DNA of 64,000 nucleotides from Microbotryum violaceum (taxonomy: Eukaryota): contig LN717261.1 in NCBI GenBank assembly GCA_001244265.2, positions 1,193,591 to 1,257,590 on the forward strand, written 5' to 3'. The translations under genes and the position numbers were made by a program. Under the pieces are notes generated by a model. It saw only the letters and a list, made by a program, of their open reading frames with translations. It was not told the DNA's origin and did no database searches. Each line of letters starts with the position of its first letter. The first letter of the stretch is position 1. Positions 12,757-60,467 of this stretch are shown here, one piece after another.

Positions 12757-18565
<5,809 letters not shown>

Positions 18566-23363: not shown

Positions 23364-23564
23364 TGAGAAGCACGAGATTGCTCTCAAGCCTCACTGGTTC
23401 CGAGTCCAAACTGAAAGGATCAAACGGTGTAATTCGCAGGCGAAGAAAGACTACTAAAAGGACTAAGGTCAAGAGATGAGGCGGCGCCGCGCACGAGGGC
23501 AAGCGTGAGGCCGCAGAGGTCGGCTCGAGGTCATCGTGAGGTGTAAGCGGAGCGGCGCCTTACA
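23364..23564 (-). mobile_element. Solo LTR, same family as 6016-6216
   Basis: TG...CA termini with TSD CTTTG on both sides. Confidence 0.95.
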
Positions 23565-26500
23565 CTTTGCTGCAACAGCTGCGGTACTGTTCAGTAACGG
23601 AAAGCTAGTGAGTCAGGTTGTGCGAAGACCGCGCAATGACAATCAAATGTACAGAGCCTTCATTTCATTATTGGACTACTTTTTTTGTTCTCTGGGAGCC
23701 CGATGATTGGCTCAGACCGTCGTCGAGACCCGTGTCGAGTGTGGACCTTTTCACGGGTGTCGCAAGCTTGACTTGCGAGCTGCCAATCGAACCGAGCCAT
23801 ACATGTTGGAATATACTTTCGACCAGCTGGAAACATCGACGGAGCTGCATTGGCGCCTCTCATTCCATCACTGAACTACTTTTTTGTTCTCTAGGAGCCC
23901 GATGATGGGCTCAGACCGTTGTTGAGACCCGCGTTGAGTGTGGAGCAACGCTATCTCGGTGATGTTGAGACTCTGAAGATACTCGATCAAGAACAGTGAT
24001 TCGTCTTCGTTTTCGACGCGCTGAAGAACGTTTGAACATCACCCGGCAGCAGGTCGAGCACCATATCGTTGATGTGATCCACCTGCGAATTTTTGGGCGC
24101 CAGTTTTGCTCGCTCTCGGAAGTATTCGACTTTTTTGCCTATCAACATTTGCCTATCGCGTCCAGTTCAAGCGCGGGGACGGAATAAACGTGTCTGATCA
24201 GCCCGGATGTTCCTCTTGGTCGCCTGCAGGAGAAGGTTACGTGGGAGCGCAATAGAGTTTTCTGTTTTGTTCGCCGAGCTATCTCCAACTCCTAAGAGCC
24301 AATCTGCAGAGCCCTGTGCCTTTGCCCGTTCCGTTTCGATCATGCGGTCTGCAGCGGCCAGAAGAGGCATGTTTGTCTGCGCTTGCACCGTGCCGTTGTT
24401 AGTATAGGGTCTAAAAGTCAGGCAAGGACTGCTACTTACAGAGAGATGCAGCACCTCAACTTCCCCCCAGAAGTCAGCATTCCATGATGCAAGCGTCGAG
24501 GATTTGCGCAGGCGATTACTTGGGAATAACGGAAGGCATCTTGAGAAAACTCATCTCCTGTGATGTTACAGTCCAACCGGTCAGTTAGTCATGATGCCCT
24601 GCGCTGTGCTGTGCTGTTGAAAGATTGGCACACACCTGCCAACACGAGGGTCAGTCCACCAAACCGAGCCGTTGACGATTGCACATTTTGCAACATCCTG
24701 TCCACCAACTGGAAACATCGACGGTGCTGCATCGGTGCCTAGTCCCAGAGCTCGGCGAGCTGTCCTTGTTTCGGAACATTGCACGTAGCGTTGTCAAAGA
24801 TGTCGATCGGGATCTTGAACCGTGAATGTGCCGTTCTGCCTTTTGGCAGTAGCAGTGCAGCAATACCCAATGATGCAACGGCAAGAGCGTATGTTCCCTC
24901 TGACCGAATCCGAGCAAAGTCCGTTTCTTCTAAGAACGTTTTGCCTGTCCCTCCCGGAGCATCAACGAAAAAAGACTTCTCCGCAGCTGTTCAGAATCGA
25001 GTCAAGAACTGTCTCAACAACAACGCGTTGTTTGGCGTTGCACGGCTCGAAGTTGCTCCTCCAGAGACCCTCCACTTCGTCGAGTTCTGCTGCTGTGGCT
25101 GATTCCTCCATGATGAGACAATTTGTTGAAGCTTTGTCATCGAACTGAATCGTTAGCAGCGGCAGGCCATGGTCTGACAATGAGGAGTCGAGTTGTTGCA
25201 GAATATTGCTGAGCTGTAGCAGCCCCCAGCTGGCTACATGCTCGGGTGTGATGTTTGGCTGCCGTCTTTGGTTCCGTAGCTGGTATTCAACGTCTTGGGC
25301 GAGGTTGTCATAGTGCTTTGTCCATAACTGCGCCGCGTTTGTCACTCCATCATCCGCCGTTAACAGCATGGCAAACAGGTGTCGAAGCTCGTGGCCAGTA
25401 CAGAAGACCGCTGCTTCCGTCAGACATCTGTCGGCTTCAGCGTTGTTGCGTATGAGCCCCCGTTCAACAGAGGCTTCCCGGAATGTTCGAAACTCAACAC
25501 CATTGAAAATCTTCAGATCCGCAAACGATGTCGGAGAAGGCACCTTGAGAAGAAGTAGTCACAAGTAGTATCGCTCTCCGCCTTCAGGACCACAAAAGTA
25601 AATTCTTCCGATTGTCCGGTTGTCAACTTTTTGTGGAACCCAAGCACAATCTTTGTTGTTCCATCGGGTTGGCACGTCGACGTAAAGCAAAGCTTGTGCG
25701 TTGTGATCGGGCGGCGTTTTGGCGCACAGTTTGATGAAGGCGGTTAACGTCGTTTCCGGTGGCGCTGATAAATCCGGTGCTCCGTGATCTGGGTCGAACC
25801 AAACTTGTTGCTCATCCGGGAGGTGCAGCGCAAGTATGGCCACTGCGGGATCCCAATCGTGCATCCTGAATCGAAATATCCGGTGAATGGCTTTGGGGGC
25901 GCAAACATATTGAGTGTCAAGGAAGTTGTTGATTTCGTCTTGAGTTCCGGGTTTGTCAATCGTGAATGAAGTACGGTCATGGCCCTTGTAAACGTACTTG
26001 TACAGTTACTTGATTGCGGCAACGTCGCTTGCGATTTCCACGTTAACATGACAATTGTACTTGGACGCAAGAAACGGATTTGTTGGAACAATGTTTGTAT
26101 CCGTATAAACTTCTTCTTGCGCTGTGCCCGGGAATTTGACATACTGGTGTATGCCGCAATGCCAGTAGTGTGGATAGCCACCGTCTTCGCTGGTCGTGCG
26201 TGGAGTCGTTTGGGAAACCGTTTGGTACATTTTCCATGGTCGTCATGGCAGGTGCTTGCCGGGATGATCACATTGCTGGTGTAGCATGGAGTTTGTGATG
26301 GTCTCAAACAATGCAGGGAATTTGTCGCGGTCCGGCATTTCTGCGGTCACTATCTTGTCATAGTCGTCGTTTGTTTTTGGTTTGTCTTCTGGATCCATGA
26401 TCAAAAGTATGTGGGCGTGAGGCAGTCCGCGCTTTTGAAATTCAACAACATAGACATATGCAATGACCTGTGCAAATAATTGAGACTTGTGAGCATCCTA

Positions 26501-26591
26501 TCCATTTTATATTGACCACACCAATTGACATACCTTTCCAAAGACTCCCGGTGCACAACCAACGCCTAATACATCCCCAAAAAGAGCTTTC

Positions 26592-29500
26592 TGTAAGGCC
26601 CGTGCGCCTGGGCCTTAGGAAGAGGGGACGCGGGCCTGGGCACTCTTAGTCTCTCTCCAGCGACTGATACAAGTGTCCAGGTGAGCACAAGGTGGATCAG
26701 AAGGCTTTGTCATACCAGCGACTGATACGAGTGTCCAGTGTCAATTCTAAATACTTTGGTCCTGTGATCCTTGTCGTCATCGCTCAGGTGTACACTCCAA
26801 CGGGGTGTATTACACTTTTTTTTTCACACCGGTCAAAGACGCACACTGCCACGTGCGCCAGCGACACACCCACGGAACGAACAAACGACAACGAACGGTA
26901 ACAGACGAACATGGCGCGTGGCAAGAACTCCACCGCCCAACCAGCGCCACCATCGGCACCAGAGGAAAGGGAGGACAGCTCGGACAATGAACAGGAGGTT
27001 GCAACGATGCCAAGGGGCATGAAGCTCAGCGCGCCCAAGCTTGCGAACGGCACGAAACTCACTCTCTCCTCGATCCGCGCATTCCTCAACGACATGGACA
27101 ACATGTTCTTCCAGTACCAAGTGAAGAACATGCGACTAAAGATAATGTTCATCGCCAACCACATTGAACACGAGGCGCTCAAGGATTGGCTGGTGACGGC
27201 GACGGAGGAATGCACGTGGGACGAGCTTAAGGTCGCCTTCATCCGCAAGGCACTACCCTTGGATTTCGCCTTCACGACAGAGCAGCGTATTCGCCACAGC
27301 CACCAAGGCAACCACGACTACGCGACGTGGGCTTCGGGACTTCGGGCCTCACAGCTGCAGCTCGGCCAGACCGCCCTCAGCGACATCGAGTTCATCAAGA
27401 TCCTACTGTTCAACATGGACCCTCAATTGAGCGTTGTTCTACGACAGAACGACCTTCTGTTGGGTACTGGCCTACACCAAGATGATTTAGACTACGTGGC
27501 GGCTTCAAAGGCGGCGCTCCCCAAGCTCAAGACATTATCTTACGAGGTGTTTGAGCGATTGGCAAGATCCCAATGGAATGTGATCATAGCGGTTCGTCCT
27601 GTAGCAACTCCCCGAACGCAAACCTCGACTACGAGCCCAAAGACCAGCTCTGGCCGACCTTTTGTGACCTCGGCGACCACTCGACGCAGGCCGACGAGAC
27701 TCACGGACCCGATGAAGGATTATCTCTCGGAGAAGGAGGGATGCTTTAGCTGCAGACGCATCAACACGGATCACCGCGCGAGCGACTGTACAGCCAACTG
27801 GCAGCAGGCACCGGATGTCCCGGAGGGGTGGGCCGAATTCGAAAAGAAGACGGCGAAAGCGGCTAAGAACGACACCCTCCATCAAATTGCGGAACACTCA
27901 GAAGACGACATCTCAACGGACGAAGAAAACGAGTACGCCCCTCAGTTCATCTCCACCATTCCCATCACTCTGCACAACAACACGAAGTCAAAGACGTTGC
28001 AGGCACTTGCTGACTCTGGGGCCTCTTCCTCCTTTATCGCAGATAAGGTGGTTGAGAAACTGGGGTTAGTCATGCATCGTCTCCCTGTTCCTACATTGGT
28101 CAAAACTGCAATCAAAGGCCTAGCACGCGCGTTTCATGTTACCTCGTTTGTAAAGATTCCAATCACGCTCGAGAATGGCGCATGGGAAGCGGGACACACG
28201 ATTCTGAAGGTGGCTAAACTGCAGGAGCCCTTGGAAGTGGTACTGGGGTTCAACTTCCTTGTAAAGCACAAGGTTACCATCGACTTCGCGGCACACAAGA
28301 TCCTGGTGCCACATCCGACCATGCCTGACGTAAAGATCGACCTTCTTGCGCCGGTCTTCGGACCCCACCCCCAGCAAGCCGCGGCAAGGAATGCCAAACG
28401 AAGCGATAAAGCTCGGATCAACTGGCGTGCAGTGATTGCCTACATCGACGGGGTCCAGCAAAGGGAAACGGAGTTGACGGAGTTGCGACGGCGGGAGGCA
28501 AAGCTACGGGTCGAGTTCGCGGATCGGTTCCCGGGGGATATTCCTCCGGTTTCGACGTATGAATCACCGGTCCGACACCGAATCGAGCTGACGGACGGAG
28601 CAGCAAAACCGAACTTGAAGGGTTATCGAGCGGCACACCGTTACCGGGAAGCCTGGAAGCGCCTGATTGATCAGCACGTCGCCAATGGCCGCCTTCGAAA
28701 GTCGTCATCAGAGTTCGCGTCCCCGGCGTTTGTCATCCCAAAGAAAGGTATGGATAAGGACCCGTCAATCCAACCACGCATGGTCTGTGACTACCGAGTA
28801 CTCAACGAAGGGACGGTCCGAGATCGCACACCTCTACCACTTCCGGACGAGATTCTGTCGGTCTGCTCAAACGCGCGATTCTGGGGGAAGATCGACATGA
28901 CAAACTCCTTCTTCCAAACCAAGATGGCCGAGGAAGACATCCGGAAGACGGCGATTGTGACACCGTGGGGATTGTACGAGTGGACGGTAATGCCAATGGG
29001 ACTCTGCAACGCCCCGGCAACGCATCAGCGCCGAGTCAACGAGGCACTCAGAGACCTTATCGGGAGCGTGTGTTTCGTGTACCTCGATGACATCACAATC
29101 TTTGCCGATACCTTGGAGGAACATGAACGACGGGTGCGACTAGTCCTGGAGGCGCTGAGACGGGCGGATCTGTACGTATCGCCGATGAAGACGGAACTGT
29201 TTGCTGCCGAGTGCTTTTTCCTCGGCCACCAGATCACTCGGGAAGGCATCAAGGTCGATCCTGACAAGGTGGAGCGGATCCAACAGTGGCCGCGACCAAG
29301 GACGGTGAAGCAATTGCGGGGATTCCTAGGTCTGGTGCAGTATCTGCGGAAGTTCATCAACAAGCTTGCGGATTTGACGGCGGTTTTAGTCCCGCTGACA
29401 CGAAAAGGGGTGCATGTCGACGAAGGCTGGACGGGAGAGCACGACAAGGCGTTTGAGGCAATCAAGTCCTTGGTGGGCAACCTTCCTTCTCTACATCCCA

Positions 29501-31697
29501 TTGACCATTCCGACAAGGGTGACCCATTATGGCTGATGACGGACGCGAGCAATCGGGGAATCGGGGCGGCACTCAGTCAAGGAAAGCAATGGCAGACGGC
29601 CATGCTGGCAGGCTATTGGTCACGACAGTACAACCCAGCGGAAGGCAACTATGCAGCCCACCAGATGGAATTGCTTGCAATTGTGGACGCCCTTCATCAC
29701 TGGCGGGCGGACCTTTTGGGTGTTCGATTCAAGATCCTCACAGACCACCACTCCTTGGCGGGCTTCATGAAGCAACCAAGCCTTTCACGACGACAAGCTC
29801 GATGGACCGAACGACTGGCCGATTACGACTTCGAGATTGTATATGTACGAGGTCCAGAGAACACAGTGGCTGATGCATTGAGTCGTTACTCCTTCCCGGA
29901 GGAACCCACAGCCGGCCGCCAGGCGAGCAACAATGTCAACGTGCTGGCGGAGGCAACTCTCGATCCTGCCTTCCTTTGCAAACTCAGGGACGGTTACCGC
30001 AAGGACCCGCAATGTCAACAAGCTATCAAGAACATTGATTCAACACCACGCTACTCAGTCGACAATGGAATCGCACGGTTCAAAGGACGGATCCTCCTGC
30101 CAAAGACGGGGAACTTTCGGGAGGACGCGCTACATGACGCGCATGATGCCGCAGGCCATTTTGGACTACACAAGACGTATGAACACCTACGCCGCAACTT
30201 TGTCTGGTCGGGAATGAAGGATGCAGGCAAAGATTACGTTGAGTCCTGTGCTGCTTGTCAGACAATGAAGATGCATGGCACCGGTTTTGCCGGTCGGATC
30301 CACAATTTGAATGTGCCTGACCGGCCAATGCGGGAAGTTGGCCTAGACTTTGTTGGGCCACTTGTACCTAGCAATGGTAATGACGCACTGCTTACGGTAA
30401 CAGATCGCCTTTCAGGCTACGTTCGCCTCATCCCCTGCCGCACGACGGACAACGCGACTACCACGGCGGACCGGTTCTTTGAGGGGTGGCATCAACACTT
30501 CGGCATGCCACGAGTGCTGGTCTCCGACCGCGACAGGCTCTTCACAAGCGAGTTCTGGCGAGCGTACATGGGCCAGCTGGGAACGAAACTGGCAACATCG
30601 ACGTCTTTCCACCCACAAACGGATGGCCGAAGCGAGCGAACAAATCGGACCGTGATCCAAGTCCTGCGAACAATGGTCAACCGACGGCAAAATGACTGGT
30701 CAAAGCACTTGGCTACGGTGGAGTTTGTGATCAACTCCAGTATGAACAGGTCGACGGGGAAGACGCCATTTGAAGTGGTACTTGGGTTCACGCCGGAGCT
30801 GACACCGATCACCCCAGTGGAGGGCTCAACCATGTCACAGGCAGTCAAATTCATCGTGGAACAACGTGAAGCAGCGGTTGCGGAAGCCCGAGACAATTTG
30901 GCAATTGCAAAGATCCGACAGGCCAACCAGAGCAACAAGGCGAGGAAACCGGAGCCCGGGTTTGCAGTTGGCGACATGGTCTTAGTTGACTCGCGGGATC
31001 AACGACTGCGGTACAAGGCCGATGGGGAAGCACGGTCAGCCAAACTCTTTCCCCGGTTTGACGGCCCCTACAAAGTCCTAGCAGCACGACCCGAAACCTC
31101 AAATTACAAGCTGAAGCTCAAGGCGGGGGACAAGTCGCACAACGTCTTCCACGCCTCCAAGCTCCGACGCTGGGTAAAGAACAATGGGGTGGTGTTCCCA
31201 GGACGAGAGGCAACGGAACCAGCGGCCATTATCGTCCAAGGAAACGAGGAGTGGGAGGTAGAACGGATTGTGGACGAAAAGGGGAAGGGGTCAAGGAAGA
31301 GGTTCTTGGTGAAATGGAAGGGGTGGGCAGACAGCGACAACACATGGGAGCCATGCTCACACCTGGAAGACACCGCAGCGTTGGAAGAGTGGGAGAGTGG
31401 GAAGGCGGGGGGAGGACAAGGCAAGGAGGGGAGGGTGTAAGGAGGGAGGGGAGTTTGGTTTAGGTGGTGGAGAGTGTAAGGCCTGTGCGCCTGGGCCTTA
31501 GGAAGAGGGGACGCGCGCCTGGGCACTCTTAGTCTCTCTCCAGCGACTGATACGAGTGTCCAGGTGAGCACAAGGTGGATCAGAAGGCATTGTCATACCA
31601 GCGACTGATACGAGTGTCCAGTGTCAATTCTACATACTTTGGTCCTGTGATCCTTGTCGTCGTCGCTCAGGTGTACACTCCAACGGGGTGTATTACG
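26592..31697 (+). mobile_element. Ty3/gypsy chromovirus E, copy 1 (full length)
   Basis: 223-bp LTRs at 26592-26814 and 31475-31697, TSD CTTTC, purine-rich PPT; the 3' LTR ends TTACG rather than TTACA. Confidence 0.97.
26911..31440 (+). CDS. Gypsy gag-pol polyprotein with chromodomain, 1509 aa, uninterrupted
   Basis: CFSC...H...C knuckle, [62 protein letters not shown]...FLVKWKGW...TWEP. Confidence 0.95.
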
Positions 31698-32114
31698 CTT
31701 TCAGTTTACCGTGAAAGACCCGTGCTACTATATTGGGACGGTCGGATGCGGTTTGGCCAGGAAGCAAAGCGTTGACAATTTCCGACCAGGCAGGGTTGCA
31801 TGTCAGTGTGTGTGATGAATATGTCCGGAGCGCCAAAAACACGAACAATGGCCATAGTAGCTTGGTAAAGTTGGACCATTTGGCGTGGCGAACCGGCATG
31901 TGACAATGGTAGAATGACTCTTTTGCCAATCTGCGCAGGATTGAGTCCTTCAGCCAGGCTTGCTTGAAGGGACAAATATTCTTTGGCTCTGAGCTTTTTC
32001 TGATCGATTCTCATCCAATATAGTCGTTCTTGTTCAGTCAATGCCCATGTGTCCGCAACGAATTTCTGGAACAACCGGCCCCCAAGGAACAATTGAAACT
32101 GAACAGCAATGTGC

Positions 32115-35100
32115 TGAACGAGTTGGCGGCAGGGACAAGCCAATGAGTTCGTAATCATGTAAAGATTGCAATAAAGGAGTTCTTCACATACCTGAATGAG
32201 TTGGCGGCAGGGACAAGCCAATGAGTTTGTAATCAAGTGAAGAAGAGGAGACAAAGACACGAATCGCGCGTGCAACTAATATAAAGTGGAGACGCGCGTA
32301 GTGCGGATTTCAGGCAAGAGTAATTTACTTCAACACCCCCCCTTGCTCTTGGCCTGAAATTCGCCGAAGGCCAATAGCGTCACAATGACGCTGGAAAATT
32401 CCTCGAGGCAGCGGCTTGGTGAAGATATCGGCCACCATGTCATGGGTAGGGATGTAGGTGACCAAGATCTCTCCATTTCAAACATGCTCCCAAACAAAGT
32501 GCTCCAACATGCGAAGGTGTTTGGTGCAAGCATGGAAGACCGGGTTCTGGGTGAGTGCAATAGCGCCTTGATTGTCTCCAAGCAGACAAAGGGGTGACAA
32601 TGTGTCAAGGCCGAGCTCGGTGAGGAGCGAGCGAAGGAAGGCTGCCTCCTTGGCAGCATGCAAAAGACCCAGATACTCGGCTTCCGTAGACAAACACGCC
32701 ACTCGGGGTTGGAGACGGGATGACCACAATATTGCGCCACCAGCCAGGTTGAACAAGTAGCCCATTGTTGACCTTGACCTGTTCACATTGGATCCCCAGT
32801 CCAAGTCAGAATACCCCTCGTATCCCAGCAAGGGTTCGTTGTTAGCCACGTAATGGATGCCCAGATCGAACGAGCCTTTGATGTACCAAAGGACGCGTTT
32901 GACGGCCTCGAGATGCGCTGCCCCCGCTTTGCCAACAAACCAAAAGAGATACCCCACAGCGTGTGCAAGATTGGGTTGGGTGGCAACAACGGCGTACATG
33001 AGGGAGCCGATCATAGAACATTACATTGAGTTGTCGGCTTCATCGGGGTCAATCTTGGGCAACAACTGGAGGTTGGCCTCCATTGGCGATTTACAGGGAT
33101 TGCAATTGGACATGCCAAAACAAGCCAACACGTCGACAAGGTATTGGCGCTGCAGGAGGGTGATCCTGCCATCATCATGCCGGACGACCTGAACCCATAG
33201 AATCCAGTCAGCCGGGCCAAGACATTTTATGCCGTAAAGGGTGTCGAGTTGATCCAGGACTCAATCAATCTCCCCAAGGTCGGGACCAAAGAAGAGGAGG
33301 TTGTCTACGTAGAGCGCAACATAGTGATCACCCAAAATGTTGGTGCACCTATAAATGCATTCATTGCAGGCAAGACGGCGGTAGCCGAGATTTGCTAGAG
33401 TGGCGTTGATCATGTCGTTCCAGACTCAACCGGCTTGCTTGAGCCCGTAGATGGAATGGTGAAGACAGAGGCACTTGCCGTCATAGCCTTCAATGCCAGT
33501 GGGGACGTGCATGTAGATCTCTTCCTCCAGGATGCCGTGGAGGTAGGCTTTGTCCACACTGGCTTGTATGATGTGGTGGCCCCTGGAGGCTGCGTGCACA
33601 ACGAGAGCGCAAATGGAGGTGAACTTTGCCGTTGGTGCAAACATCTCGTCAAAATCACCTGCCCGCTGTGCGCATCCCTGAGCTACAATGCGGCTCTTTA
33701 ACGACACCATTTTGCCCGCCTTATTGCGTTTGGTCCAAAACACGTGGCAACTTGGCAAGATAGTGGCTGCCATGGGAACGGAGGCAAGGTTGACCACACT
33801 GAACACCTTGAAGTCGTCCTTCATCGAGCGGAACTCCTTGATGGCACCAGCTTTCCAACCTTCCGCATGAGGGTGGCGCATGGCTTCCTTCCAAGTACTG
33901 GGATTGCTGGTGGGAAGCGTGAAAGGATCTTTGGGCTCGGAGAGAGGATGGTTCGCCTTCAAGACATCGATGCTGGCCTCTGCAAGATTGGCAACCAGTG
34001 CAACAACCTCGTTGCTGAGTGAGAATGCAAAGGCAGAAGGCGTCGAGCGCAAGGATGCGAGGGCTCCGTACCAAGCCGGCGGATTGCGCGCACGTGGGCC
34101 TGTGGGTGGCTGCCAGGCCGGGCCAGGGGCGTCAAAACGCAAGGCAGCCGGTGGGTCAACGTGCTCGGGGGGAATAATGACGACCCCGCTGTCGTCGTCC
34201 CCCGCGGCCGGAAGCGGGGGCGCTCGGATACCCGTTGCTCAAGCAGGGAAGTTGTCCTCAAAGAATGTGACGCTGCGGGACTTGAAGACCTGTCTTGTGT
34301 TGGGGTCTAGCAGTCTGTACCCCTTGGACTCGAGGTCGTAGCCAACAAAGACGAGTGAGATGCCTTGCGGATTGAGCTTGCTGCGTGGCTCAATGGTAGC
34401 GGCCTTCCACGCTCAACAGCCAAACACGCGTAGATGGCCAGCTGAAGGTTTGGAACCGTACCAACGTGTGTGAGGCGTGGTGCCCGAGTTTGCAGAGTGC
34501 GGCGAGCGATTTTTGACATAGACATACGTTGCCAATGCCTCGGCCCACAAAGCGTGAGGTAGGCCCGACTGGTGGAGCATTGAGCGGACACCACTGGTGA
34601 TTGAACAATTTGCAAGTTCGGCGACTCCATTCTGTTGAGGTGTGTCAGGGATAGAGAGCTGACGAGTAATGCCTTCCTCCTCCAGGAATCTGGAGAACTC
34701 GTTCAACATGAATTTGCCCCCATTATCCGAGCGGACAGCAAGGACTTTGCGTGACATGGAGCGCTCCACCTTCGTGAGCCAGGATTTGAAGGCCGCAAAG
34801 GTGTTGGACTTGTGTGACATCAGAATTGCCCACAAATACCGAGAATGGTCGTCCACAATGACAAGAGTGTATCTCGCACCCCCTAATGACACGGCACCAT
34901 TGAACGCAAGGAGGTCCATGTGGACTTGTTCAAGCGGCTGAGCAGAGCGATTCGATGCGACGGCAGGGAACGGGTGATGCGTAATTTTGCCAGCTTGGCA
35001 AGTGCCACATTTCAAATCCTCGTTTGAATCTACCTCCATGCTGACTCCCGACACGGCTTCAGTCAGAATCAACTGTCGGAGGGTGCGTGGGTGGAGGTGA

Positions 35101-35410
35101 GCGAAGCGTCCGTGCAAGACCGACATGGGAACGGCCACAAGTGCACGCGGGAACGCACCCACTTGATGAACAAGAGCAGCGACGTCAACAAGCAAGGCCT
35201 GCATGTGGTAAATTCCGTTCTTGACCTCGCCAGTGTGACACACTGTGTTGGCAATGGAGACCGTTGCCTTGGCCCAAGTCAGACGGATGTCGTAACCCCC
35301 GATGTCAGCACAACTGGCGGAGAACAGGTTGACCGGAGCGGTGGGCACGAACAAGGTGTCGTTGAGTTGGCCGATGCTGCCGTCGAAGGAACGAGCAATT
35401 GCGGAGCCGA
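32115..35410 (-). mobile_element. Ty1/copia element G, 5'-truncated and heavily mutated
   Basis: 3' LTR 32115-32335 with internal direct repeat and G7 PPT; LHGRFAH, VHMDL, RSDNGG, KSRIVAQG, YGLKQAG, STEAEY. Confidence 0.9.
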
Positions 35411-38090
35411 CAGTGGGAACCCGTTAAATTAACGGGAGGATGAAATTCAAAAAATAGCAGGATAATCGAACAGTCTACATGATATCAGCGCAGAGGTTAA
35501 GAAAACACAATACGAAATACAGCAAAGAAACAAAATCCATTCATCTTACATTCATTGCCGAAACAGCCTGCATGTCGCTTGTTGCCGGACTTGGCTTCAA
35601 ACACTCGTGCAATGAGATCCGGACGGTTGCATGCTTTATCGGCCCCAGTGCAGCCTTGATTTCCGGTGAGTCGGGGTCGTACGTCATCGTGATGAGCAGC
35701 GGAGGCTTTCCATGTTTGACAACGCACGCCATCGCATCCTGGTATCGCTGCGCGATGTCGCGATTTGGTTCGGGGTCAAGCCGTTGATGCCTTGGGTCGT
35801 GGTGAGGCGTAGGTTCTCTTGATGTAACCGGATGTGTTCAGTCAATCCGTCTTGACTTGGGAGTACATTCGTAATTCACGAACTCTAGGAAGGGACGCTG
35901 GGTGCAATGCGGAATTGAGAAGTGCTCGTCGCGTTTGGCAAGTAGTGCGCAAAGAATTGTGAACGCGAGACTCGCCACCTCGACCCCTTTACTTGACCTT
36001 CGTCCTAGGTGTTCAAAAGTTCAATGTCAGTCTGTGCTTGCGCCTTCGGCAGAATGGAACATCAGAGAAAGAGCCGAAGACGCGTACGTTCGCCATCACC
36101 ATCCTCTTCGTCCCCTTCCTCGCCGTCTTCATCCTCATTGTCGCGGTCTTCGTCCTCCTGTTCGTCTTCGTCATCCAGACCAAGACCGGCAAGTACCTCG
36201 CGCAATTGGACACCATTGTCGATCTGCTTTCAGTTTCTGGCGATTGGCGGCCTGGCTTGGTGGAACCCGCAAAGAGGAATATTGGGGTGGAAGCCATCTT
36301 CCCCTGCAGGAAAAAGTAGTGGGTAACGGAGAGGCATCGCGGACGGATGGAGCGAGCTAACGATTTGGTACTTGAGCCGACCATCGGGACATCGATCACC
36401 GTGCACCTGGAGAATAAGGTCTTGACGTCCAGGATCTCCCGTGTTGGTGTCGGAATGGTAGATAAGCATCGCCATTTCCGTGCTCGATGTAGGAGGGTTG
36501 TGGGTGCGTCGGTCCCGGCCTGGCGGGAGGCAGAGGCGCAGGATCCACTCTTTGGCCGTATCCCAACCTGCGCGAGGTTTGGCCGATGCGAACTCCCTCA
36601 CAAAGTGATTCTTGGTACGCAACATGGACTCGAGCTTGGTCAAAGTAGATCGTTGCATGTGACTGTCTGCGCCGTCGGGTTCAAGTCGAGTGTCGGTGGC
36701 CTCGGCCGGGTTGATCAGCCATGTTTGAGCAAAGGCTGGGCATTGATTCACGGCAGGGATCAGGGCGCCGAGTCGATGGTAGAGGCGACCAAACACGCGA
36801 AACACGGGGGGTCCTAGCGTGCCCACTTGAGCTTGGTCCCAGAGGGCAGCGAGCGAAGTAAATGACAACGCGTTGTTGTACGATCGGGCGTTCTCGCGGA
36901 ACGCTTTAGCTTCTGTGTGCGTGGGAAGATTGCTGTGGAAATATCGTCGCACAGTTCAGCATGTGGGTCTACTGCAGACGAACGTTGTTGGACGGAGCAA
37001 CTGACCGCTATCCGAGCCTTGAAGAAGCTGCCGATACTCGAGATTGGGCTGGGGAGGGGGAGGTAGCCGCACCTTGCCCTGCGAGCAGCTCGCGCTGAAG
37101 TGTCTGGTCGACTTCGACCTTTCGCACTCCCAGTGCCGAGCCTTGCAGTGGGTGCACACGGCCGTCTGGGGGCCGAGGTCGTCGCGGATCGAAACGTGGG
37201 CTTGAGGGGTCTGAGCGCGATTCGAGCCCGGCGCACTCGCCTTTGCGGTGGTGGTGGGGCGAGCCCAGCGTCGAGTTGGCCATCGCGCTGACCACGCTGT
37301 CCGTTCTGCACAGCTGCACGGCGGGCTCGTATACGTGTCGCAATGCCAAGATCGGTTGAATTGTTGTCATGACGCGCCGGGGGGCTGATTCTGTTGATCG
37401 GAGCGGGACGAAGAGGAGGGTCGAGCCGCGCAGCAGCGGGCGCTCGAGCAGGCCCATGGTAGCCCATGGTACGGCGCTACCCTCGCGCCCAAGACTTGGC
37501 GAGGTTGCGATGGCCCTCCCTGAGTCCCTGGCGACCTTGGGACCGGGACATAGCAGCGAGGGTTTGTTCTTGAATGAGTGTCACTAAAATTGGATGAGAG
37601 TGAGAGGGAGAAAGGAAAGGTTCGAGGGAGTGGCGCAGGATTATCTACGTGGTTTGATTTGTTGTTCAGCCCCTAATGCCGCTGGTCGACTGCCGGAATG
37701 ACACTGACACCGCCGGCGCACCGCATCACGTGACAACCGCCAGCCCTCGCCTCGCGCGTCAGGCAGAGCTCTGCTGTAGAAGCAATATTATGCAAAGCCA
37801 CGCGCTTGCGGTTCATTAAATACCATATGAGTGGAAGCATTGTTTTATGTCAGCGAAAAAAAGAAGGAAAATACTGGGAGCGCTGTAGCTTCGTTGGAAC
37901 GGCGCGGAAAATACAAAAGTCACCACAGGGCTTGTACATGACTTCTGATCGGAACCCCGACACCACAGGCAGGTGCGGTAGACACAACAGTATGCTGGTA
38001 CATCCACCACAGGCGGCCCTCCAGGCCGCAACCTAGTTAAAAACAGCGAATTAGATTACATTCCTTAACTCACCTTTTTTTTATAGAGGT
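35411..38090 (-). mobile_element. Helitron H, non-autonomous deletion derivative
   Basis: 5' end (A)CCTCTATAAAA; Rep N-terminus CTHCKARHW...YNNALSFTS...FRVFGRLYH...PLRYPLLFPAGEDGFH and RYQDAMA...ITMT; intron ~36915-37005; 3' hairpin CCCGTTAA/TTAACGGG then TTCCCACTG. Confidence 0.85.
36319..38090 (-). repeat. Left arm of a 1.77-kb inverted repeat
   Basis: Reverse complement of 43921-45692; the ORF track is mirrored across both arms. Confidence 0.97.
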
Positions 38091-38351
38091 AGTAAGGTAG
38101 TAAAGGCCAAAAAAATGCGTTTTTCCGCATGCGACTCTGGCTGGGCTTTCGGGGGTCCTCATGCACCGAACCTCCGTCTTCTCCCGCTCTCGCAGCCTCG
38201 CGAGTTTCGCCGCCCTTCCTCGCTAGCACTGCAGGTGGGTACGACGGTTCTTGCCTCTGACTGCTTTCCCGTTAAGTTCAGCCCAGATGTTAATGTGGGA
38301 GTTGGAGTCGTACAGTTCCCCGCCTGCAGCCTTCAGCTGCACCCGATCGAC

Positions 38352-39074
38352 ATGGCGACTGACGATACATCGTCGAGCTCGCCTTACGCTGCGACGCTCA
38401 TCTCGGCTTCGTTCACGTCCGGGCAGCCGATCCTACGCTTCGGCTCGTTCACCCTCAAGTCCGGTCGTCAATCGCCTTATTTCTTCAACTTCGGCTTGTT
38501 CAACACGGGGGCCTTGCTGCTGTCTCTCTCTGGCGCGTTTGCGGATGCGATCATCGCTGCTTTTCCGTCAATCGGTCTTACACCCGCTGCACCCGCTGCA
38601 TCCGGCTCGCTCGACAACAACACTCCGCAGGTTCTGTTCGGTCCAGCTTACAAGGGTATCCCACTCGTGGCGGCCATCTCGACCGAGCTCGCCCGTCGGG
38701 GTCGCGACATCGGGTATTCGTACAATCGCAAGGAGGCCAAGACGCACGGTGAAGGTGGATCAATCGTCGGCGCCGATCTCAGGGGCAAGCGTGTGCTCAT
38801 CATTGACGATGTGATCACTGCGGGAACGGCCATTCGCCAAGCACACCAGATAGTCGTGGCTGAGCAAGGCCACACCGTCGGGATCTTCGAGGCCCTTGAC
38901 CGCGAAGAACGCGGCGCCGGCTTTCTTAGCACGGTGCAAGAGATCGAACAGGAGCTCGGTCTTCCTGTGTTCAGTGTCCTGAAGATGCGTGACATCGTTG
39001 CATGGCTGGACGGGCAAAATCGTGACCCAGAAAAACTGGCCATGGAGGCGTATCGTCAGGAATATGGGGTCTGA
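38352..39074 (+). CDS. URA5: Orotate phosphoribosyltransferase (240 aa)
   Basis: LRFGSFTLKSGRQSPYFFN, FGPAYKGIP, YNRKEAKTHGEGG, PRPP-binding motif VLIIDDVITAGTA, LDREE. The start is placed at MATDD; the upstream ATG at 38115 adds 79 aa that do not resemble OPRT. Confidence 0.97.
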   Translation: MATDDTSSSSPYAATLISASFTSGQPILRFGSFTLKSGRQSPYFFNFGLFNTGALLLSLSGAFADAIIAAFPSIGLTPAAPAASGSLDNNTPQVLFGPAYKGIPLVAAISTELARRGRDIGYSYNRKEAKTHGEGGSIVGADLRGKRVLIIDDVITAGTAIRQAHQIVVAEQGHTVGIFEALDREERGAGFLSTVQEIEQELGLPVFSVLKMRDIVAWLDGQNRDPEKLAMEAYRQEYGV

Positions 39075-39129
39075 AGTCGTTGGGAACCTCGAGCGAACGC
39101 GAGAGTTGCACGTTAGAGATAATTCACCA

Positions 39130-39290
39130 CCAGTGGGAACCCGTTGAACAAACGGGAGGATGAAATCCAATTAGCAGGAGGATTGGACAGTATACATGCT
39201 TTCAGCAGAGTAAAAACAAAATAGTGGGACCCCCTAAAATGGCGGGAGGATGAAATTCATATAGCAGGATAATGTATACATGTCATGGAA
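39130..39290 (-). mobile_element. Two tandem Helitron-type 3' termini
   Basis: Minus strand CATCCTCCCGTT/AACGGG hairpin then TTCCCACTGG|T at 39130, and a degenerate copy ending at ~39222; homologous to 35411-35490. Confidence 0.7.
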
Positions 39291-39598
39291 ACTATTCTCC
39301 ATTCATAGCTTGAAGCTACGTCGGCAAGACCAAGTATATCTCCGGGGTCTGTGATTTCATTCTTGCTATCAAGGACCTGAAAAGTCCTTCCACCCGCCTC
39401 GCTTAATCTCGAACGTGACGGGGTCACGGAGCGGATCTCGCTGAAGATCACAATTTACCGGTGGCATGCGCTACTGCGTCTTCTGTCGATCAGGCTCCCA
39501 TCTCCAAAAGGGCCGCCCTTCCCGCTACGGCATGGCCATGCAGAATCTGTATACTTCTCATGCCACGCAACGCTGCCCGGAGCCCAAGGGTCCGGATA

Positions 39599-39982
39599 AG
39601 GTCAGATCAAGTTCAGATCAATCAAGCCTCGAAGAAAAAAATCCAAAAGTAGACGGTACCTGGATGCTGCCATTGTGATTTGAAATGCCAACTGCGCGCA
39701 CCTGATCACTGTCACGAATGGAAGCAAGGGTCCGCATAGATCAGATCAGATCTGATCTGACGGGGGTCAGGTCAAGTTCAGATCAATCAAGCCTCGAGGG
39801 CAAAAAAACCAAAAGTAGGCGGCACCTAGATGGTGCCATTGTGTTTGAAATGCCAACTGCGGCGGACCTGATCACTGCATGCATATGCTCATATTCGAAT
39901 TTTTAAACTCGAATTTACTGATGTTCATAATCCAATTTATTGATGCTCATATTCCAATTTACTAATGCTCATATCCGAATTG
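39599..39982. repeat. ~112-bp direct repeat pair followed by a 22-bp minisatellite
   Basis: GGTCAG.TCAAGTTCAGATCAATCAAGCCTCGA...CCTGATCACTG at ~39599 and ~39765; TACTGATGCTCATATTCCAATT-like units at ~39886-39982. Confidence 0.8.
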
Positions 39983-40180
39983 TAGTTTTTCAATGCAGGG
40001 TTTTCTACTGGTATTATGATACAGGTACACTATAAAGCAGCAAACTGAGTGTCGACGTCTCCCATTTGTCTGGATTGTCAGATTGATCAAGATCTAAACC
40101 GCCCGAAGCTCCGGCTGCCGCTCCTTTTGCCCGTTTCTTATACCCTTTAGTCGGCTCTAATTATTCCTCTTTCTCTTCCT

Positions 40181-40815
40181 CTACCCGAGACTGCTCTTCC
40201 TCGCTTTCTTCTCTGCGACGGACCCGCCTGGTGATGGTCTTCTGGCTAATGCGAGAAGATTGTTTAGCGTTCGCCTCCTTCGTCGATTTTGACTGACCCG
40301 GGCCTCTTGTTTAAGAGCAGATTCTAAGCCTAGCTCGTTGCGCAATCTTGTGATGTCCGCCCTGGAAAGCCGTCCCATGATTCCCGCCAATCGACAGGCT
40401 TCACAGTCGTACTGCAGTCTATACGCGGCTCGGGACATTCGCCAACGCATGAATAACAAGTTCTTCATAGAGCCAGTCGCCCGATGTGACCCTCAAGAAA
40501 GCCGTGCGCTCACGAATCTGAAAGAGGATGACGAGTGAGTGCCCGAGCAAGCGCACGCTCCGTACAAGACTGGCAGGTTCCGCGCAACTCACATATTTGA
40601 CGATATCTCGTTGTTTTGCAGGTCCAAGACGTCCCCACACAGTAGTGTTGTTTTGCGTTTTGGCGTGAATGAGCCTGAACGCGTCCTTGAGGTTGAACTC
40701 CTTAGGCGTGTGGTAGTCTGGAGTCCACATGCCGACCATAAAGGTTGATGGGGTCAGGTGTGGTGATTCCTGCCTTTACTAGTGCATCCCGTACAACCGA
40801 CTGGTCGAAGGACAT
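40181..40815 (-). pseudogene. Unidentified spliced gene or pseudogene
   Basis: MSFDQSVVRDAL..., apparent frameshift at ~40740, and an in-frame 75-nt GTGAGT...TTTCAG intron (40518-40592) joining QRDIVKY to IRERTAFLRVTSGDWLYEEL. Confidence 0.4.
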
Positions 40816-40941
40816 CACACAGATGGTGAGCACTGAGGAGTCAGATCGACGAGATGGCGTCGCGCCCTGATCGTTGAGCCGCCGGTACTCACGCGAACCC
40901 AATTATAGTATACTGGCGCAGGCTCATAGAACCCTTTACGA

Positions 40942-41099
40942 CCTCTATCCTTAAATCCTTAAACTTATAAAATCCTTAATCCTTAAAACTTATCCTGCAA
41001 ACTATATAATAAAATAGGCCGTCGAGACAAAGAACATTCTAGAACGAGACAAACCACGTGGCATGACGTCATGGCGCGCTTCGCGCGCCACCGCACTAG
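40942..41099 (+). mobile_element. Mini-Helitron (~158 bp)
   Basis: Starts (A)CCTCTAT with reiterated TCCTTAA units; ends with hairpin TGGCGCGC-TTC-GCGCGCCA then CCGCA CTAG|T. Confidence 0.75.
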
Positions 41100-41100
41100 T

Positions 41101-43909
41101 AGTACTACTAAATGAATCAGTCACGTCAGACAAAGAACGTTCTAGAACAAAAGACAAACCACGTGGCGTGACGTCATAGGCAGCTCTCGGTCTAGCGCGT
41201 CCCAGTTAGCTAGCGCTGTTTCAGCATCGACTACCTTCGCCGAGGTTCCATTTCCCATCCATGCGGCCTGAAGTAGATGCGGCCTGGCACATGACTCTGC
41301 TTCCCAGACGACCGGCTTTGCGTGCCTACCACATCGTAGTGTAGTCCCTTCAACCATCCAGTTCTGCCACTGCCGAAGAGTCATCTGCAAGCTTTCACGT
41401 CCCGTCTCCTGTACAACAATCTTCACGGAGAGCAGCGGGGCAGCGAGACGTCGGCAGCTGCTCGCGTTCCTCCTCCTCCGCACAATCCTCCTCTTCCCCT
41501 CCCGCTCTAATCGCAGACGTCGCCGCCAGCAACCTCGAACAATCGCCGAAGCTAGCGACAACGATGCCTTCGCCAGAAGCAGCAGCGCGAAACCGATCAA
41601 CACGACGTCGCGCAAACTGGTTCGTCAAGTCAACCTGCACCGGCAGCAGGCAGTCTCAATGTCGCACGGCAAGTGCAACGGGCCCGCAGCTCTTCACCTC
41701 CAAGCTTGAGATTCGTTCGTCCACTTGTTCCAGTTCCGGACCTCGGGTGGCGTCGGCCAGTGCGCCAATTCCGCCGTTAGGGGCCCCGCCAGCGTGTCAC
41801 GGGGCTTCACTCCATGACGTTCCGCGGCGTTCCGCAACATTCTATGAGTCCGGTTCAAACTGAGGCGCAGGCTTCTCCATCTTTCTCCCTCCTGCTCTTC
41901 ACACCTTGCCCATCGCACCTCATCCCATCGCCACCTCGAGCTCGCGACCTCCGAAGCGGTCGTCGTGGAAGCTCTGCAACGAATACGGCATCAAGAAATG
42001 GCTGCCGCATGCAACATAGCTACGAATTCGAGTAAGTAACTTCATGGATTGTGCTCTTGCTGCGTTGTTCAGAAGCTAATGGAAAACTACCAAGCAGAAA
42101 TTCCCTTCAACACATCCTCTTCGAATGTCAACCCTCGAGTTGTTTCTTCACCGCCAGCTGGTGACACGCATACGTGAGTCATCCCTTGACATGGCTGTGC
42201 AGTCTTAGATATGACGGAAAACTTGACACCAAAAACAGACATTGAACGTCAGTGAGACAGCGGAAGGATTGACTTCGTACGGTTGAGGATCCGCCGGGTC
42301 ATTGGGACACTAAATGTGAGTCTTCACTGACATTGCTACAAATGGACAACATCAAGAACACTGATAGTTCTAAAGGACGAATCACCCAAAAAAAAAAACA
42401 GGTTCCGTGAATTGCGGCTCACCATCCGTGGCAGATCCTCAACGGCTCCGTTCGTTGGAGTGACCGTCGTGTTGGCAGGTGTGTGCCAATCTTTCAAAAG
42501 CAAAACGCAGGGCAGCATGACTAACTAATCGGTTGGACTGTAACATCACACAGGTTCCGTGAATTGCGGCTCACCATCCCGTGGCAGATCCTCGACGGCT
42601 CGGTTCGGTGGAGTGACCGTCGTGTTGGCAGGTATGTGCCAATCTTTCAAAAGCAAGGCGCAGGGCAGCATGACTCACTGACCGGTTGGACTGTGACATC
42701 ACAGAGGATCCGAAGCAATGCCTTCCCGGCATTCTCAAAGCATCGCTTACACAAATCGTCGACGCTTGCATCATGAATGTTGACTTCTGCCGGGATCTCT
42801 CTGTAAGTGGTAGTCCTTGCCTGACCTTTAGACCCTATACTAGGCTTACAACGGCACAGTGCGAGCGCAGACAAACATGCCTCTTCTGGCCGCTGCAAAC
42901 CGCATGGCCGAAACGGAACAGGCAAAGGCACAGGGCTTTGCAGATTGGCTCTTCGGAGTTCGGAGTTGGAGACGGGCCGGCGAACGAAACAGAAGCCTAT
43001 CGCGCTCCCACGTGAGCTTCTCCTGCCGGCGACCACGAGGAACAGCTCCGGGTTGATCAGACATGTCTATCCCGTCCCCGTGCTCGAACTGGACAATATG
43101 TCGATAGGCGAAGAAGTCGAATACTTCCGAGAGCGAGCAAAACTGGGCGTGGATCACATCAACAACATGGTGCTCGACCTGCTGCCGCATTGCTACAGAT
43201 GGACAACAGCAAGAATACTGATAGTTGCACGACGTCTCGGAGGTCTGAAGATCAGCAACGACATCGTCAACGGGAAAGGCTCGAGCGAGAGCGTTCCGGT
43301 CCGGTCCCACACAGTTCTTCGCCGAGCCCTGCCTTTGCCAAATCACGACAAATCAGTCCACCTCCAGGAGATCAGGGTAAAATGATTGCGTTGGACAATC
43401 GCCTCCACCCCAGCCAACGCCCGATGTCAAGCGCAGTGCAATTGTTGACTGTGCGGCGTGTGGGATTTGACATCGGGCGTTGGCTGGGGTGGAGGTGATT
43501 ATCCAACGCAATCACCGTACGAAGTCGATCCTTTGACACGCTGGCGGTGATGGTGGACAGGATGTTGCAAGATGTGCGATCGTCAACGGCTCGGTTTGGT
43601 ACGGTGAAATGAAGAGTTATGTCAAAGCTCCATAGTGAAGCTCCGGCAATAGAAGGTGAGGGATGTCGATGTCGGGAGGCATCCATGAAAAGATCCACAC
43701 TCGATGCGGGTCTCGACGGCAGTCTGAGCTCATCATCGGGCTCCCAGGAAGGCTGTTTGCATTTGATTGTCGTCGCGCGGTCCTCTCCCGACTTCAACCA
43801 CTACGCTTGCGTTACTCAGCAGTACCGCAGCTGTTGCAGCGAAGTACATCACATTGCAGGTGAACGGTTACGGTGTGAGGTGGCGCGCGGAGCGCGCCGC
43901 CGAACCTAG
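41101..43909 (+). mobile_element. Helitron J, non-autonomous, with scrambled PIF1 helicase fragments
   Basis: 3' hairpin GGCGCGC-GGA-GCGCGCC then CTAG|T at 43909 (same end as 23294); [34 protein letters not shown]; 152-bp tandem duplication at ~42398-42700; 5' boundary approximate. Confidence 0.75.
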
Positions 43910-43920
43910 TATATATAAAA

Positions 43921-60467
<16,547 letters not shown>

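Follow-up and report, generated by a model that had tools for sequence, protein, structure and literature searches.

An intact, single-copy URA5 gene beside Helitron ends in Microbotryum is probably native to its transposon-rich surroundings

Helitrons capture the DNA that flanks them on the 3' side by bypassing a terminator, a process that is established (PMC5148889), and gene-capturing families have been described in Pleurotus (the HELPO families) and in maize. In Microbotryum, Helitrons are reported to accumulate (PMC10502011) in transposon-rich, low-recombination regions (centromeres and mating-type chromosomes), and islands of housekeeping genes are known from these same compartments. In the stretch of DNA analysed here (64 kb, referred to as the window), one intact gene, URA5, is surrounded by nested copia, Ty3 and Helitron elements that bear RIP-like mutations and together exceed 60 kb. 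Like the housekeeping-gene islands, URA5 is preserved amid nested, RIP-mutated transposons. Like the genes captured by Helitrons, it lies between termini of the same strand, with stacked terminators before it; unlike them, it has no second copy, it has neither an element body nor a 5' end on its far side, it is a complete, essential, single-copy gene rather than a fragment, and the outer ends are not followed by a return to host sequence. None of the papers found in a literature search links Helitron capture with orotate phosphoribosyltransferase (OPRT), the product of URA5.

The original prediction allowed that URA5 is either the cargo of a Helitron or the native gene, under a headline that called it Helitron-borne. 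The evidence presented below favours the native gene and disfavours the headline on account of the single copy, the missing 5' end on the far side and a contrast in age between the Helitron sequences. We give a probability of roughly 80% that URA5 is a native, single-copy, functional OPRT gene, which selection has maintained as transposons accumulated on both sides. The features of the locus are as follows, where X6 denotes sequencing contigs from another sample of the same organism, X9 and X11 those from two other organisms, and X15 those from a run guessed to be RNA.

32328-35410, minus strand: fragment of a copia element (copia G) with the C-terminal part of the protease, integrase, reverse transcriptase and RNase H, lacking gag and the N-terminal part of the protease, RIP-like mutated; delimited with family polyproteins
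35411-38090, minus strand: Helitron copy 1 (2.68 kb), a deletion derivative that is non-autonomous but retains both termini and has its 5' end on the URA5 side; 5' boundary common to copy 2
35411-35512, minus strand: 3' end A, hairpin CCCGTTAATTTAACGGG followed by TTCCCACTG (hairpin z -2.53)
35544-35837, minus strand: Rep remnant, part of Helitron_like_N (PF14214, profile positions 93-132 of 191)
38091-38351, plus strand: 5' flank of URA5 (promoter or 5' UTR region), single-copy; on one contig with URA5 in X6 and X9
38352-39074, plus strand: URA5 coding sequence for OPRT, 240 aa plus stop, intact
39075-39130, plus strand: 3' flank of URA5 up to end B, single-copy; from sequence reading and contigs of X6, X9, X11 and X15
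39131-39222, minus strand: 3' end B, a 92-bp, 5'-truncated orphan with its hairpin intact (from alignment; hairpin z -3.01)
39223-39284, minus strand: 3' end C, an orphan of ~60 bp with its hairpin decayed (from alignment; fold z -0.08)
39285-40005, no strand: single-copy, non-coding DNA past the stacked ends (from contig depth; no long ORF, no Pfam match)
43921-45692, plus strand: Helitron copy 2, represented by its 5' part, in the opposite orientation to copy 1 and cut by an LTR retrotransposon at 45693

The URA5 coding sequence runs across its 240 codons without a stop or frameshift, and the product carries a type I phosphoribosyltransferase domain (PF00156, Pribosyltran; E 1.7e-11, 44.1 bits against a cutoff of 26.3). 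The best of its 18 matches among solved structures is the OPRT 1lh0 (E 3.2e-54), with which it is colinear over its full length (residues 17-240 on residues 9-213). Neither the loop NRKEAKTHGEGG nor the PRPP motif VLIIDDVITAGTA is disrupted, and NRKEAKTHGEGG and VLIIDDVITAGTAIR are conserved between URA5 and 1lh0 in columns that are invariant in a nine-sequence alignment. The claim of an intact URA5 with all OPRT motifs therefore holds. With fungal URA5 and bacterial PyrE enzymes the protein shares the PRPP-binding motif, the flexible catalytic loop and full-length colinearity; it differs from other OPRTs in a Microbotryum-type insertion of ~20 residues (positions 70-90), common to close relatives, and in nothing else of note. 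The product is colinear with those of the relatives, keeps all catalytic motifs and is 99% identical to the protein of M. silenes-dioicae, 96-97% to that of M. saponariae and 89-90% to that of M. intermedium; the exact protein of the window is present in a public protein collection. Note that the intron-free state of URA5 is uninformative on Helitron capture because capture acts at the level of DNA. (As to that state, the colinear 240-aa product is common to the relatives.) Contigs of X15 cover 38365-39178 with 0 differences, which hints that the transcript may terminate within end B (39131-39178); the depth of this run is zero on 37963-38313 and 39367-40068, which was not counted as a sign of silence. 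URA5 is a standard counter-selectable marker, and given this use it is of practical value to know the gene to be single-copy and intact.

Copy number was taken from Logan contigs of public runs, which omit rare variants; the contig comparison over a 10.5-kb stretch comprised 4421 pieces, 617 loose ends and 334 differences, and our statements rest on the matches listed. On 38314-39015 the summed depth equals the depth of one contig in X6 (111), in X9 (34.7) and in X11 (~6.1), and the depth on URA5 is the lowest within the 10.5-kb stretch (depths being relative to that stretch), with Helitron bins reaching 33,550 in X6. Among the matches listed for X6, X9 and X11 there was no second contig at least 90% alike on URA5 and no further copy that shares the internal junctions between URA5 and the Helitrons. 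Thus URA5, whose presence in a single copy had been named beforehand as evidence against a Helitron-borne gene, is single-copy in X6, X9 and X11, and one URA5 protein is found per annotated Microbotryum genome (M. silenes-dioicae, M. saponariae A1, M. saponariae A2 and M. intermedium). The junctions at 38090, 39130 and 39222 are all crossed by a single contig in X6 (38020-39629, 1 difference) and by a single contig in X9 (37993-39629, 3 differences), and contigs of X11 cross those at 39130 and 39222 with 0 differences. An assembly artefact, with repeats collapsed or mis-joined, would be in keeping with a region that is a nest of near-identical repeats and with an older assembly in which the contig that encodes the URA5 protein is just 24,727 bp long, but the fact that independent short-read contigs cross these junctions with 0-3 differences (that at 38090 in both X6 and X9) makes such an artefact extremely improbable.

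Between URA5 and the nearest Helitron ends lie 261 bp upstream of the start codon and 56 bp downstream of the stop, much as predicted (~260 bp and ~55 bp of non-transposon DNA), which would illustrate how little room a functional gene island can take up within the transposon-rich regions of Microbotryum, with a Helitron on one side and Helitron debris on the other. At least the last 72 bp of the upstream flank match, in frame, the N-terminal extension of the M. intermedium URA5 gene model, and the downstream flank is spanned by contigs of X6, X9, X11 and X15 with at most 3 differences per contig. The island as a whole is not the 1 kb that had been proposed. Beyond the stacked ends the contigs of X6 and X9 reach 39629, and there are 0 differences in X11 over 39738-39985 (depth 5.04) and in X9 over 39835-40000 (depth 31.3). 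Since the DNA from 39285 to ~40000 is also single-copy, the unique block measures ~1.9 kb (38091 to ~40005, the right-hand border being fixed only to ~25 bp), with two small end fragments embedded in it. The interval 39285-40005 holds a tandem duplication of ~165 bp and a 22-bp repeat present three times; a relic of a neighbouring gene was considered here and rejected, as a six-frame reading gave only short ORFs and tandem repeats without a Pfam match. URA5 may be the only host gene in the 64 kb, which is consistent with the 0 tRNAs and 0 Rfam matches in the window and with the finding that, outside URA5, all confident Pfam matches among the 110 ORFs tested are transposon domains, though many ORFs gave no match. 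No satellite array was found by TRF.

The unique gene also stands apart in its mutational pattern. The ratio (TTG+CAA)/(TCG+CGA) is 0.47 on URA5, the lowest in the window and as expected of DNA that was never repeated, against 2.0-2.2 on copia G (2.17), 0.83 on the Helitron and 1.19 for the window, which bears out the description of URA5 as rich in TCG sites next to mutated transposon genes.

We then consider the Helitron ends on either side of the gene. The 3'-end motif GGGAGGATGAAAT occurs three times in the window (35434, 39154 and 39244, all on the plus strand) against 0.12 expected, and 0 of 100 shuffles reach three; looser patterns found no fourth copy in the window. End A and end B are 78% identical over 102 bp, and end B lies inside single-copy contigs of X6, X9 and X11. 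Ends B and C, 78-82% like A, are now single-copy, and there are 0 TCG/CGA sites in 39131-39284. Two tandem hairpin 3' ends had been placed past URA5: B and C are indeed stacked and share the motif, but in C the hairpin is gone (87 of 200 shuffled sequences fold equally well). The accompanying claim, that the same 3' end recurs at 35411 and a 5' end lies at 38090 on the minus strand, is supported by the motif and by the boundary of copy 2. The stacked ends B and C are old, whereas the upstream Helitron copy 1 is young.

All three 3' ends of the family in the window thus share a strand and fall within 3.9 kb around URA5, and the order C, B, A with URA5 in between is the residue expected if URA5 were cargo. 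In that case an upstream minus-strand Helitron would have passed over its terminators at C and B and continued across URA5 and the following Helitron as far as end A, and the unit as a whole would have inserted into copia G. Terminator-bypass capture of 3' flanking DNA being established, such a history would also be in line with the abutment of end A on the middle of the copia G protease, with the failure of copia G to resume at 38091, and with the Helitron ORFs near URA5 in M. saponariae and M. intermedium; were it true, a fungus would here offer a rare example of an essential metabolic gene that was mobilised whole. We nevertheless regard it as very unlikely. URA5 and its junctions are single-copy in all three sets of contigs and URA5 occurs once per annotated genome; because copy 1 is young, the donor locus should still show as a near-identical second copy, and none was seen. 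The DNA beyond end C is unique, non-coding and holds no Helitron body, and no minus-strand Helitron 5' terminus lies to the right of URA5 in the window, the only one (38090) lying to its left. Moreover, the 5' half of copia G is missing from the remaining 25 kb of the window, URA5 has no RIP-like damage, and M. intermedium has three local Helitron copies and one URA5. The Helitron ends around URA5 look like separate insertions beside the gene, not like the ends of a carrier transposon.

The 5' end at 38090 is a true boundary of the family, as the inverted copy 2 (43921-45693) aligns with 36318-38090 and breaks off at the identical base; over 1773 bp the two copies agree at 1772 positions and differ by 0 substitutions and 2 one-base indels. 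(The LTR element at 45693-51343 matches 12695-18021 at 99.8%.) The 5' motif of the family is confined in the window to 38082-38089 (minus strand) and 43922-43929 (plus strand), and termini of the family occur at several loci, the 5' end twice and the 3' end three times. The N-terminal ORF of copy 1 is 93% identical to a 1576-aa RepHel protein (P0244; PF14214 and PF05970), and the Rep remnant that had been noted between the termini was recovered as Helitron_like_N (E 7.3e-7, 30 bits against a cutoff of 28.9); the helicase part is absent from copy 1. Copy 1 thus consists of an N-terminal ORF and a Helitron_like_N remnant without a helicase, and is non-autonomous. The summed contig depth of the Helitron is 25 to 300 times that of URA5.

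On its other side, copy 1 meets copia G. All seven family polyproteins align from exactly 35411 down to 32328 at 69-83% identity, and the copia G fragment carries the Pfam domains rve and RVT_2. The first 300-340 residues of the seven polyproteins find no copia G match anywhere else in the window, and relaxed searches of 38091-45000 for the missing part gave nothing significant, so that copia G is cut in mid-protease at 35411 and does not resume past 38090, as predicted, nor elsewhere in the window. Copia G has no 3' LTR and adjoins a 5'-truncated Helitron of another family near 32300; an end at 33429 was rejected, as the reverse transcriptase, though interrupted by RIP-like stop codons, extends to 33024 and the polyprotein runs on to 32328. 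The flanks of copy 1 are therefore discordant, with the URA5 promoter on one side and the copia G protease on the other, and because they do not fit each other a later, secondary rearrangement is likely, of which the mismatch around copy 1 would be the visible trace.

Two further proposals were discarded. An inversion between the inverted Helitron copies, as the cause of the mismatch, predicts the copia G gag and protease N-terminal part to the left of 43921, and this part was not found with divergent copias or with same-family polyproteins. The protein P0253 (M. silenes-dioicae C011g06489, a copia gag-protease fused to Helitron ORFs) is not the missing half of copia G, as its copia part matches copia H (52-78%) rather than G and extends past the equivalent breakpoint.

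A further possibility is that the copia G fragment, rather than URA5, is cargo: a Helitron inside another copia G would have bypassed terminator A, taken the copia piece downstream of it along (3' transduction) and landed upstream of the native URA5. Such a course of events would account for the discordant flanks with no need of a deletion, draws on the same established bypass (PMC5148889), and agrees with a 5' flank that is native URA5 DNA, with copia sequence that starts exactly at the 3' terminus, and with the missing 3' LTR and the truncated Helitron next to copia G. We consider it unlikely, as the part of the window left of copia G holds no new 3' terminus of the family, and RIP-like mutation has affected copia G much more strongly than the Helitron (2.17 versus 0.83), which better fits a young Helitron beside an old resident copia. 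In addition, nine contigs of X11 match from 35411 onward with dissimilar flanks before it (consensus agreement 0.55), so that the junction is not an amplified unit. Under the native-gene reading, the flanks would most likely be accounted for by recombination between two family copies of the same orientation, one beside URA5 and one inside copia G, deleting the intervening DNA. (It counts against the native-gene reading that copy 1 looks complete while its flanks are non-contiguous, so that a putative recombination has to be invoked.)

Gene models in other Microbotryum genomes were compared on the assumption that locus-tag numbers follow chromosome order. In M. saponariae A2 a Helitron ORF (g03579) precedes URA5 (g03582); M. 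intermedium has three near-identical Helitron ORFs (6958, 6967 and 6984) and URA5 (6988) on a 1.006-Mb contig; and the 1.024-Mb contig with URA5 in M. silenes-dioicae carries at least six Helitron-like and three copia gene models. Helitron genes thus lie 3-4 gene models from URA5 in two species that are more distant, an indication that the neighbourhood is old, conserved and rich in transposons. An ancient capture, in which a composite Helitron took up URA5 before the Microbotryum radiation and the original locus was lost, leaving the only copy of the genus inside a fossil rolling-circle transposon, would explain this proximity even in M. intermedium, which is reportedly almost devoid of Helitrons; we regard such a history as highly improbable. 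That three or four species have a Helitron close to URA5 is likewise compatible with a long-standing association of the two.

The native gene that we favour would sit in an old transposon-rich region, on a chromosome of ~1 Mb in the relatives, where copia, Ty3 and Helitron elements would have piled up around it and purifying selection on an essential gene of pyrimidine synthesis would have kept the ~1.9-kb island free of disruptive insertions. The Helitron sequences would record separate events of different ages, the old truncated ends B and C in the 3' flank and the young 2.7-kb Helitron 261 bp upstream. The data show that the gene is intact and single-copy, that its junctions recur in other samples, where the family termini lie, that the Helitron sequences contrast in age and that copia G fails to resume in the window; we infer that selection played a part, that copies recombined and that URA5 occupies its ancestral position, the last with indirect support. 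Taken together, the findings point to an ordinary situation, a native housekeeping gene preserved amid accumulating transposons.

The termini given here at base level belong to the main Helitron family of these fungi, which resembles canonical Helitrons (Helitron1) in its Helitron_like_N remnant, in many copies with common termini and, at the level of the family though not of copy 1, in full-length RepHel proteins with a PIF1 helicase. It differs in that the shared 5' block starts ACCTCTATA, so that TC is at bases 4-5 and not at the very end (two copies being too few to fix the exact end), and in that the 3' end reads CTR followed by T or G, without a clear CTRR. As regards the A/T target of Helitron1, which inserts there without target-site duplication, T follows the end in A and C, a comparison that covers two 5' junctions and three 3' junctions. 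By eye, the last 130 nt of the element contain no reverse complement of the 5' end, as the asymmetric terminal inverted repeats of the Helitron2 type would have. The end sequences are CCCACTG|T (A), CCCACTGG (B) and CCCACTA|T (C), and in A and B 9 nt separate the hairpin from the terminus (10-12 nt in Helitron1); the ends read CTG or CTA. Both the 5'-truncated orphan ends and the stacking of ends seen here have been reported in other genomes (PMC5148889).

The original prediction held that URA5, the orotate phosphoribosyltransferase gene, lies intact between Helitron termini and might be Helitron-borne cargo. The features concerned are:

38352-39074, + strand: URA5 ORF, 240 aa; phosphoribosyltransferase domain PF00156 (E 1.7e-11)
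38090-35411, − strand: copy 1, the Helitron upstream of URA5
43921-45693, + strand: copy 2, an inverted 5' part of the same Helitron
35411-35512, − strand: Helitron 3' end A
39131-39222, − strand: Helitron 3' end B
39223-39284, − strand: Helitron 3' end C
32328-35410, − strand: copia G, a copia retrotransposon fragment

The gene is intact, as had been claimed. Solved orotate phosphoribosyltransferases align to nearly the entire protein (1lh0 is the top of 18 matches, E 3.2e-54), and comparison with them shows that the catalytic loop, NRKEAKTHGEGG, is intact, as is the PRPP motif, VLIIDDVITAGTA. A protein identical to it is present in a public collection; the closest others are the annotated URA5 of Microbotryum silenes-dioicae (99%, 240 aa) and those of M. 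saponariae (96-97%) and M. intermedium (89-90%), which places the window in an anther-smut fungus of this genus, and a 240-aa colinear product is common to the Microbotryum relatives. Because Helitron capture operates at the DNA level, the lack of introns in URA5 is uninformative. The in-frame translation of 38280-38351 matches the N-terminal extension of the M. intermedium model, so conservation of the 5' flank extends over 72 bp or more. (Note that the frame is open upstream back to 38055 (38055-38351, +), where an ATG at 38115 would yield 319 aa; the M. intermedium model (263 aa) begins in the homologous stretch and may reflect an annotation choice, the other relatives beginning at the 240-aa ATG.)

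Contigs from four public runs, which drop rare variants, were aligned to window positions 33400-43900. In X6, a different sample of the same organism, a single 1611-bp contig spans 38020-39629 with 1 difference, and in X9, a second organism, a single 1638-bp contig spans 37993-39629 with 3 differences; contigs of X11, a third organism, cover 38119-39013, 39082-39629 and 39738-39985 with 0 differences. The summed depth over URA5 equals that of the one contig (111 in X6, 34.7 in X9 and ~6.1 in X11) and is the minimum of the stretch, on a scale uncalibrated against a known single-copy gene. Among the matches listed, no second sequence with at least 90% likeness on URA5 was found in the contigs of these runs. 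From the single lowest-depth contig and the lack of a second sequence we conclude that URA5, whose copies the original prediction had left to be counted, is single-copy, that the three junctions (38090, 39130 and 39222) are fixed among close relatives, and that the DNA past end C (39285 to ~40000), which is non-coding and contains a tandem duplication of ~165 bp and a 22-bp repeat, is also single-copy. The unique island is therefore ~1.9 kb rather than the 1 kb first proposed. Contigs of X15, a run whose RNA label is a guess and whose contigs cannot reveal transcript ends, span 38365-39012 and 38983-39178 with 0 differences and have zero depth either side of the gene, which hints that URA5 is transcribed, with a 3' UTR that extends into end B by 48 nt or more.

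A Helitron 3'-end motif occurs three times on a single strand (35434, 39154 and 39244), where 0.12 would be expected by chance and 0 of 100 shuffles gave three; looser patterns found no fourth 3' end of this family in the window. Of the hairpins ascribed to these ends, those of A and B are present (6-7 bp, minus strand, 9 nt ahead of the terminus CCCACTG; z −2.5 and −3.0), whereas that of end C has been lost (fold z −0.08). In one run, nine contigs share the sequence from 35411 onward and are unlike before it (among the matches listed), which confirms the terminus there. Copy 2 matches 36318-38090 of copy 1, differing over 1773 bp by two one-base indels and no substitution, and stops at the identical base, so the 5' end proposed at 38090 marks a real boundary of the family. 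The predicted Rep remnant was likewise recovered (Helitron_like_N, E 7e-7). Copy 1 also has an N-terminal ORF with 93% identity to a RepHel of 1576 aa that contains Helitron_like_N and PIF1 domains. No helicase was found within 38090-35411, and copy 1 is a 2.7-kb non-autonomous derivative; in public contigs its segments are 25-300 times as deep as URA5. Ends B (92 bp) and C (~60 bp), both 78-82% like end A, are small old orphan fragments inside the unique island. Of note, the 5' parts of copies 1 and 2 lie head-to-head (36318-38090, −; 43921-45693, +), bracketing a 5.8-kb segment with URA5. They diverge no more than related organisms do at one and the same locus (1-3 differences per 1.6 kb), and their near-identity may stem from a very recent insertion or from gene conversion.

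If URA5 had been captured by a composite Helitron through terminator bypass, a Helitron body and 5' end should lie upstream of end C on the minus strand, the interrupted target should resume past it, and a further copy would ideally exist. In the window, however, the Helitron 5' motif is confined to 38082-38089 (−) and 43922-43929 (+), and the DNA past end C is unique and non-Helitron. Nor does copia G resume: all seven same-family polyproteins begin to align at exactly 35411 and continue down to ~32328, and their first 300-340 residues (gag and the N-part of the protease) have no copia G match elsewhere in the window on either strand. The original prediction was thus correct that copia G is cut in mid-protease without resuming, and this is true of the entire window. 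No second URA5 copy was seen in annotated relatives or run contigs (among the matches listed). Moreover, since copy 1 is young and ends B and C are old, a recent composite move should have left a near-identical donor locus, and none was seen. The RIP-like ratio is lowest in the window at URA5 (0.47, versus 2.0-2.2 in copia G, 0.83 in copy 1 and 1.19 over the whole window), as expected of DNA never duplicated. Thus, what the original prediction observed is largely right, but its Helitron-borne reading is unsupported, given that the gene and its junctions are single-copy and no minus-strand 5' end lies beyond C in the window. We regard it as highly improbable that URA5 is Helitron cargo, and favor a native single-copy gene in an old transposon-rich neighbourhood (probability roughly 0.8).

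URA5 lies on a 1,023,970-bp contig in M. silenes-dioicae (BQ5605_C011g06561), on a 1,006,473-bp contig in M. intermedium (BQ2448_6988) and, in each of the two haploid genomes of M. saponariae, on 'Chr12' pieces. In M. saponariae a homologue of the copy 1 N-terminal ORF (Chr12-3g03579) is 3 models from URA5 (g03582), and in M. intermedium three of the five homologues found (BQ2448_6958, 6967 and 6984; P0338, P0337 and P0305; at least 90% identity) are 4-30 models from it, the other two being on other contigs. The M. silenes-dioicae contig carries at least 6 Helitron-like and at least 3 copia models (g06229 to g06639). If tag numbers follow chromosome order, as we assume, URA5 and a transposon cluster containing Helitrons have been neighbours from a time before the diversification of the genus. 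Part of one published account describes Helitrons as nearly absent from M. intermedium and as accumulating in non-recombining regions (PMC10502011); the Helitron-like proteins near URA5 in that species may mark a centromere or other transposon island.

Copy 1 has the URA5 promoter at its 5' side and copia G at its 3' side. Another Helitron copy in public contigs has the same contiguous 35416-35923 structure, and copy 1 looks like a complete element. Its mismatched flanks most likely arose when two same-orientation members of this abundant family recombined; 3' transduction of the copia G fragment by the Helitron would also explain them and seems unlikely. (An inversion between copies 1 and 2 was considered and rejected.) Copia G has no 3' LTR and, near 32300, adjoins a 5'-truncated Helitron, and the LTR element at 45693-51343 is without a matching target duplication (5-bp flanks CCCAC versus GCCTG), which suggests exchange between elements. 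These other non-terminal junctions show that rearrangements of this kind are common in this region.

The LTR element at 45693-51343 is 99.8% like a copy at 12695-18021 over 5.3 kb. Two Ty3-type elements (26590-31701 and 54145-59249) are 98.9% alike; the former splits a diverged Helitron and the latter splits copia H, another copia element. Given its uninterrupted 1512-aa gag-pol ORF with chromodomain (26902-31437) and LTRs ~97% alike, the former may still be active. The diverged Helitron is an autonomous RepHel whose remains occupy 24008-26725 and 31702-32077 (−); its 3' part is the stretch 23564-24679, which 42588-43845 resembles (inverted) at 70-80%. A second Helitron family contributes a textbook 3' end at 43879-43909 (+; 10-bp GC hairpin, 8 nt ending CTAG, then T; fold z −2.36), 12 AT-rich bp ahead of the copy 2 5' end in a tandem arrangement. 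Only one class II transposase of the TIR type was seen in the window, an ORF at 60377-60865 (+) with a Transposase_21 domain (tnp2, CACTA-type; E 2e-12). Over 33400-43900, the window's transposon copies mostly have A/T where the run copies have G/C (for X6, A>G 72 and T>C 65 versus G>A 35 and C>T 40), a bias that fits RIP-like C-to-T mutation in the region.
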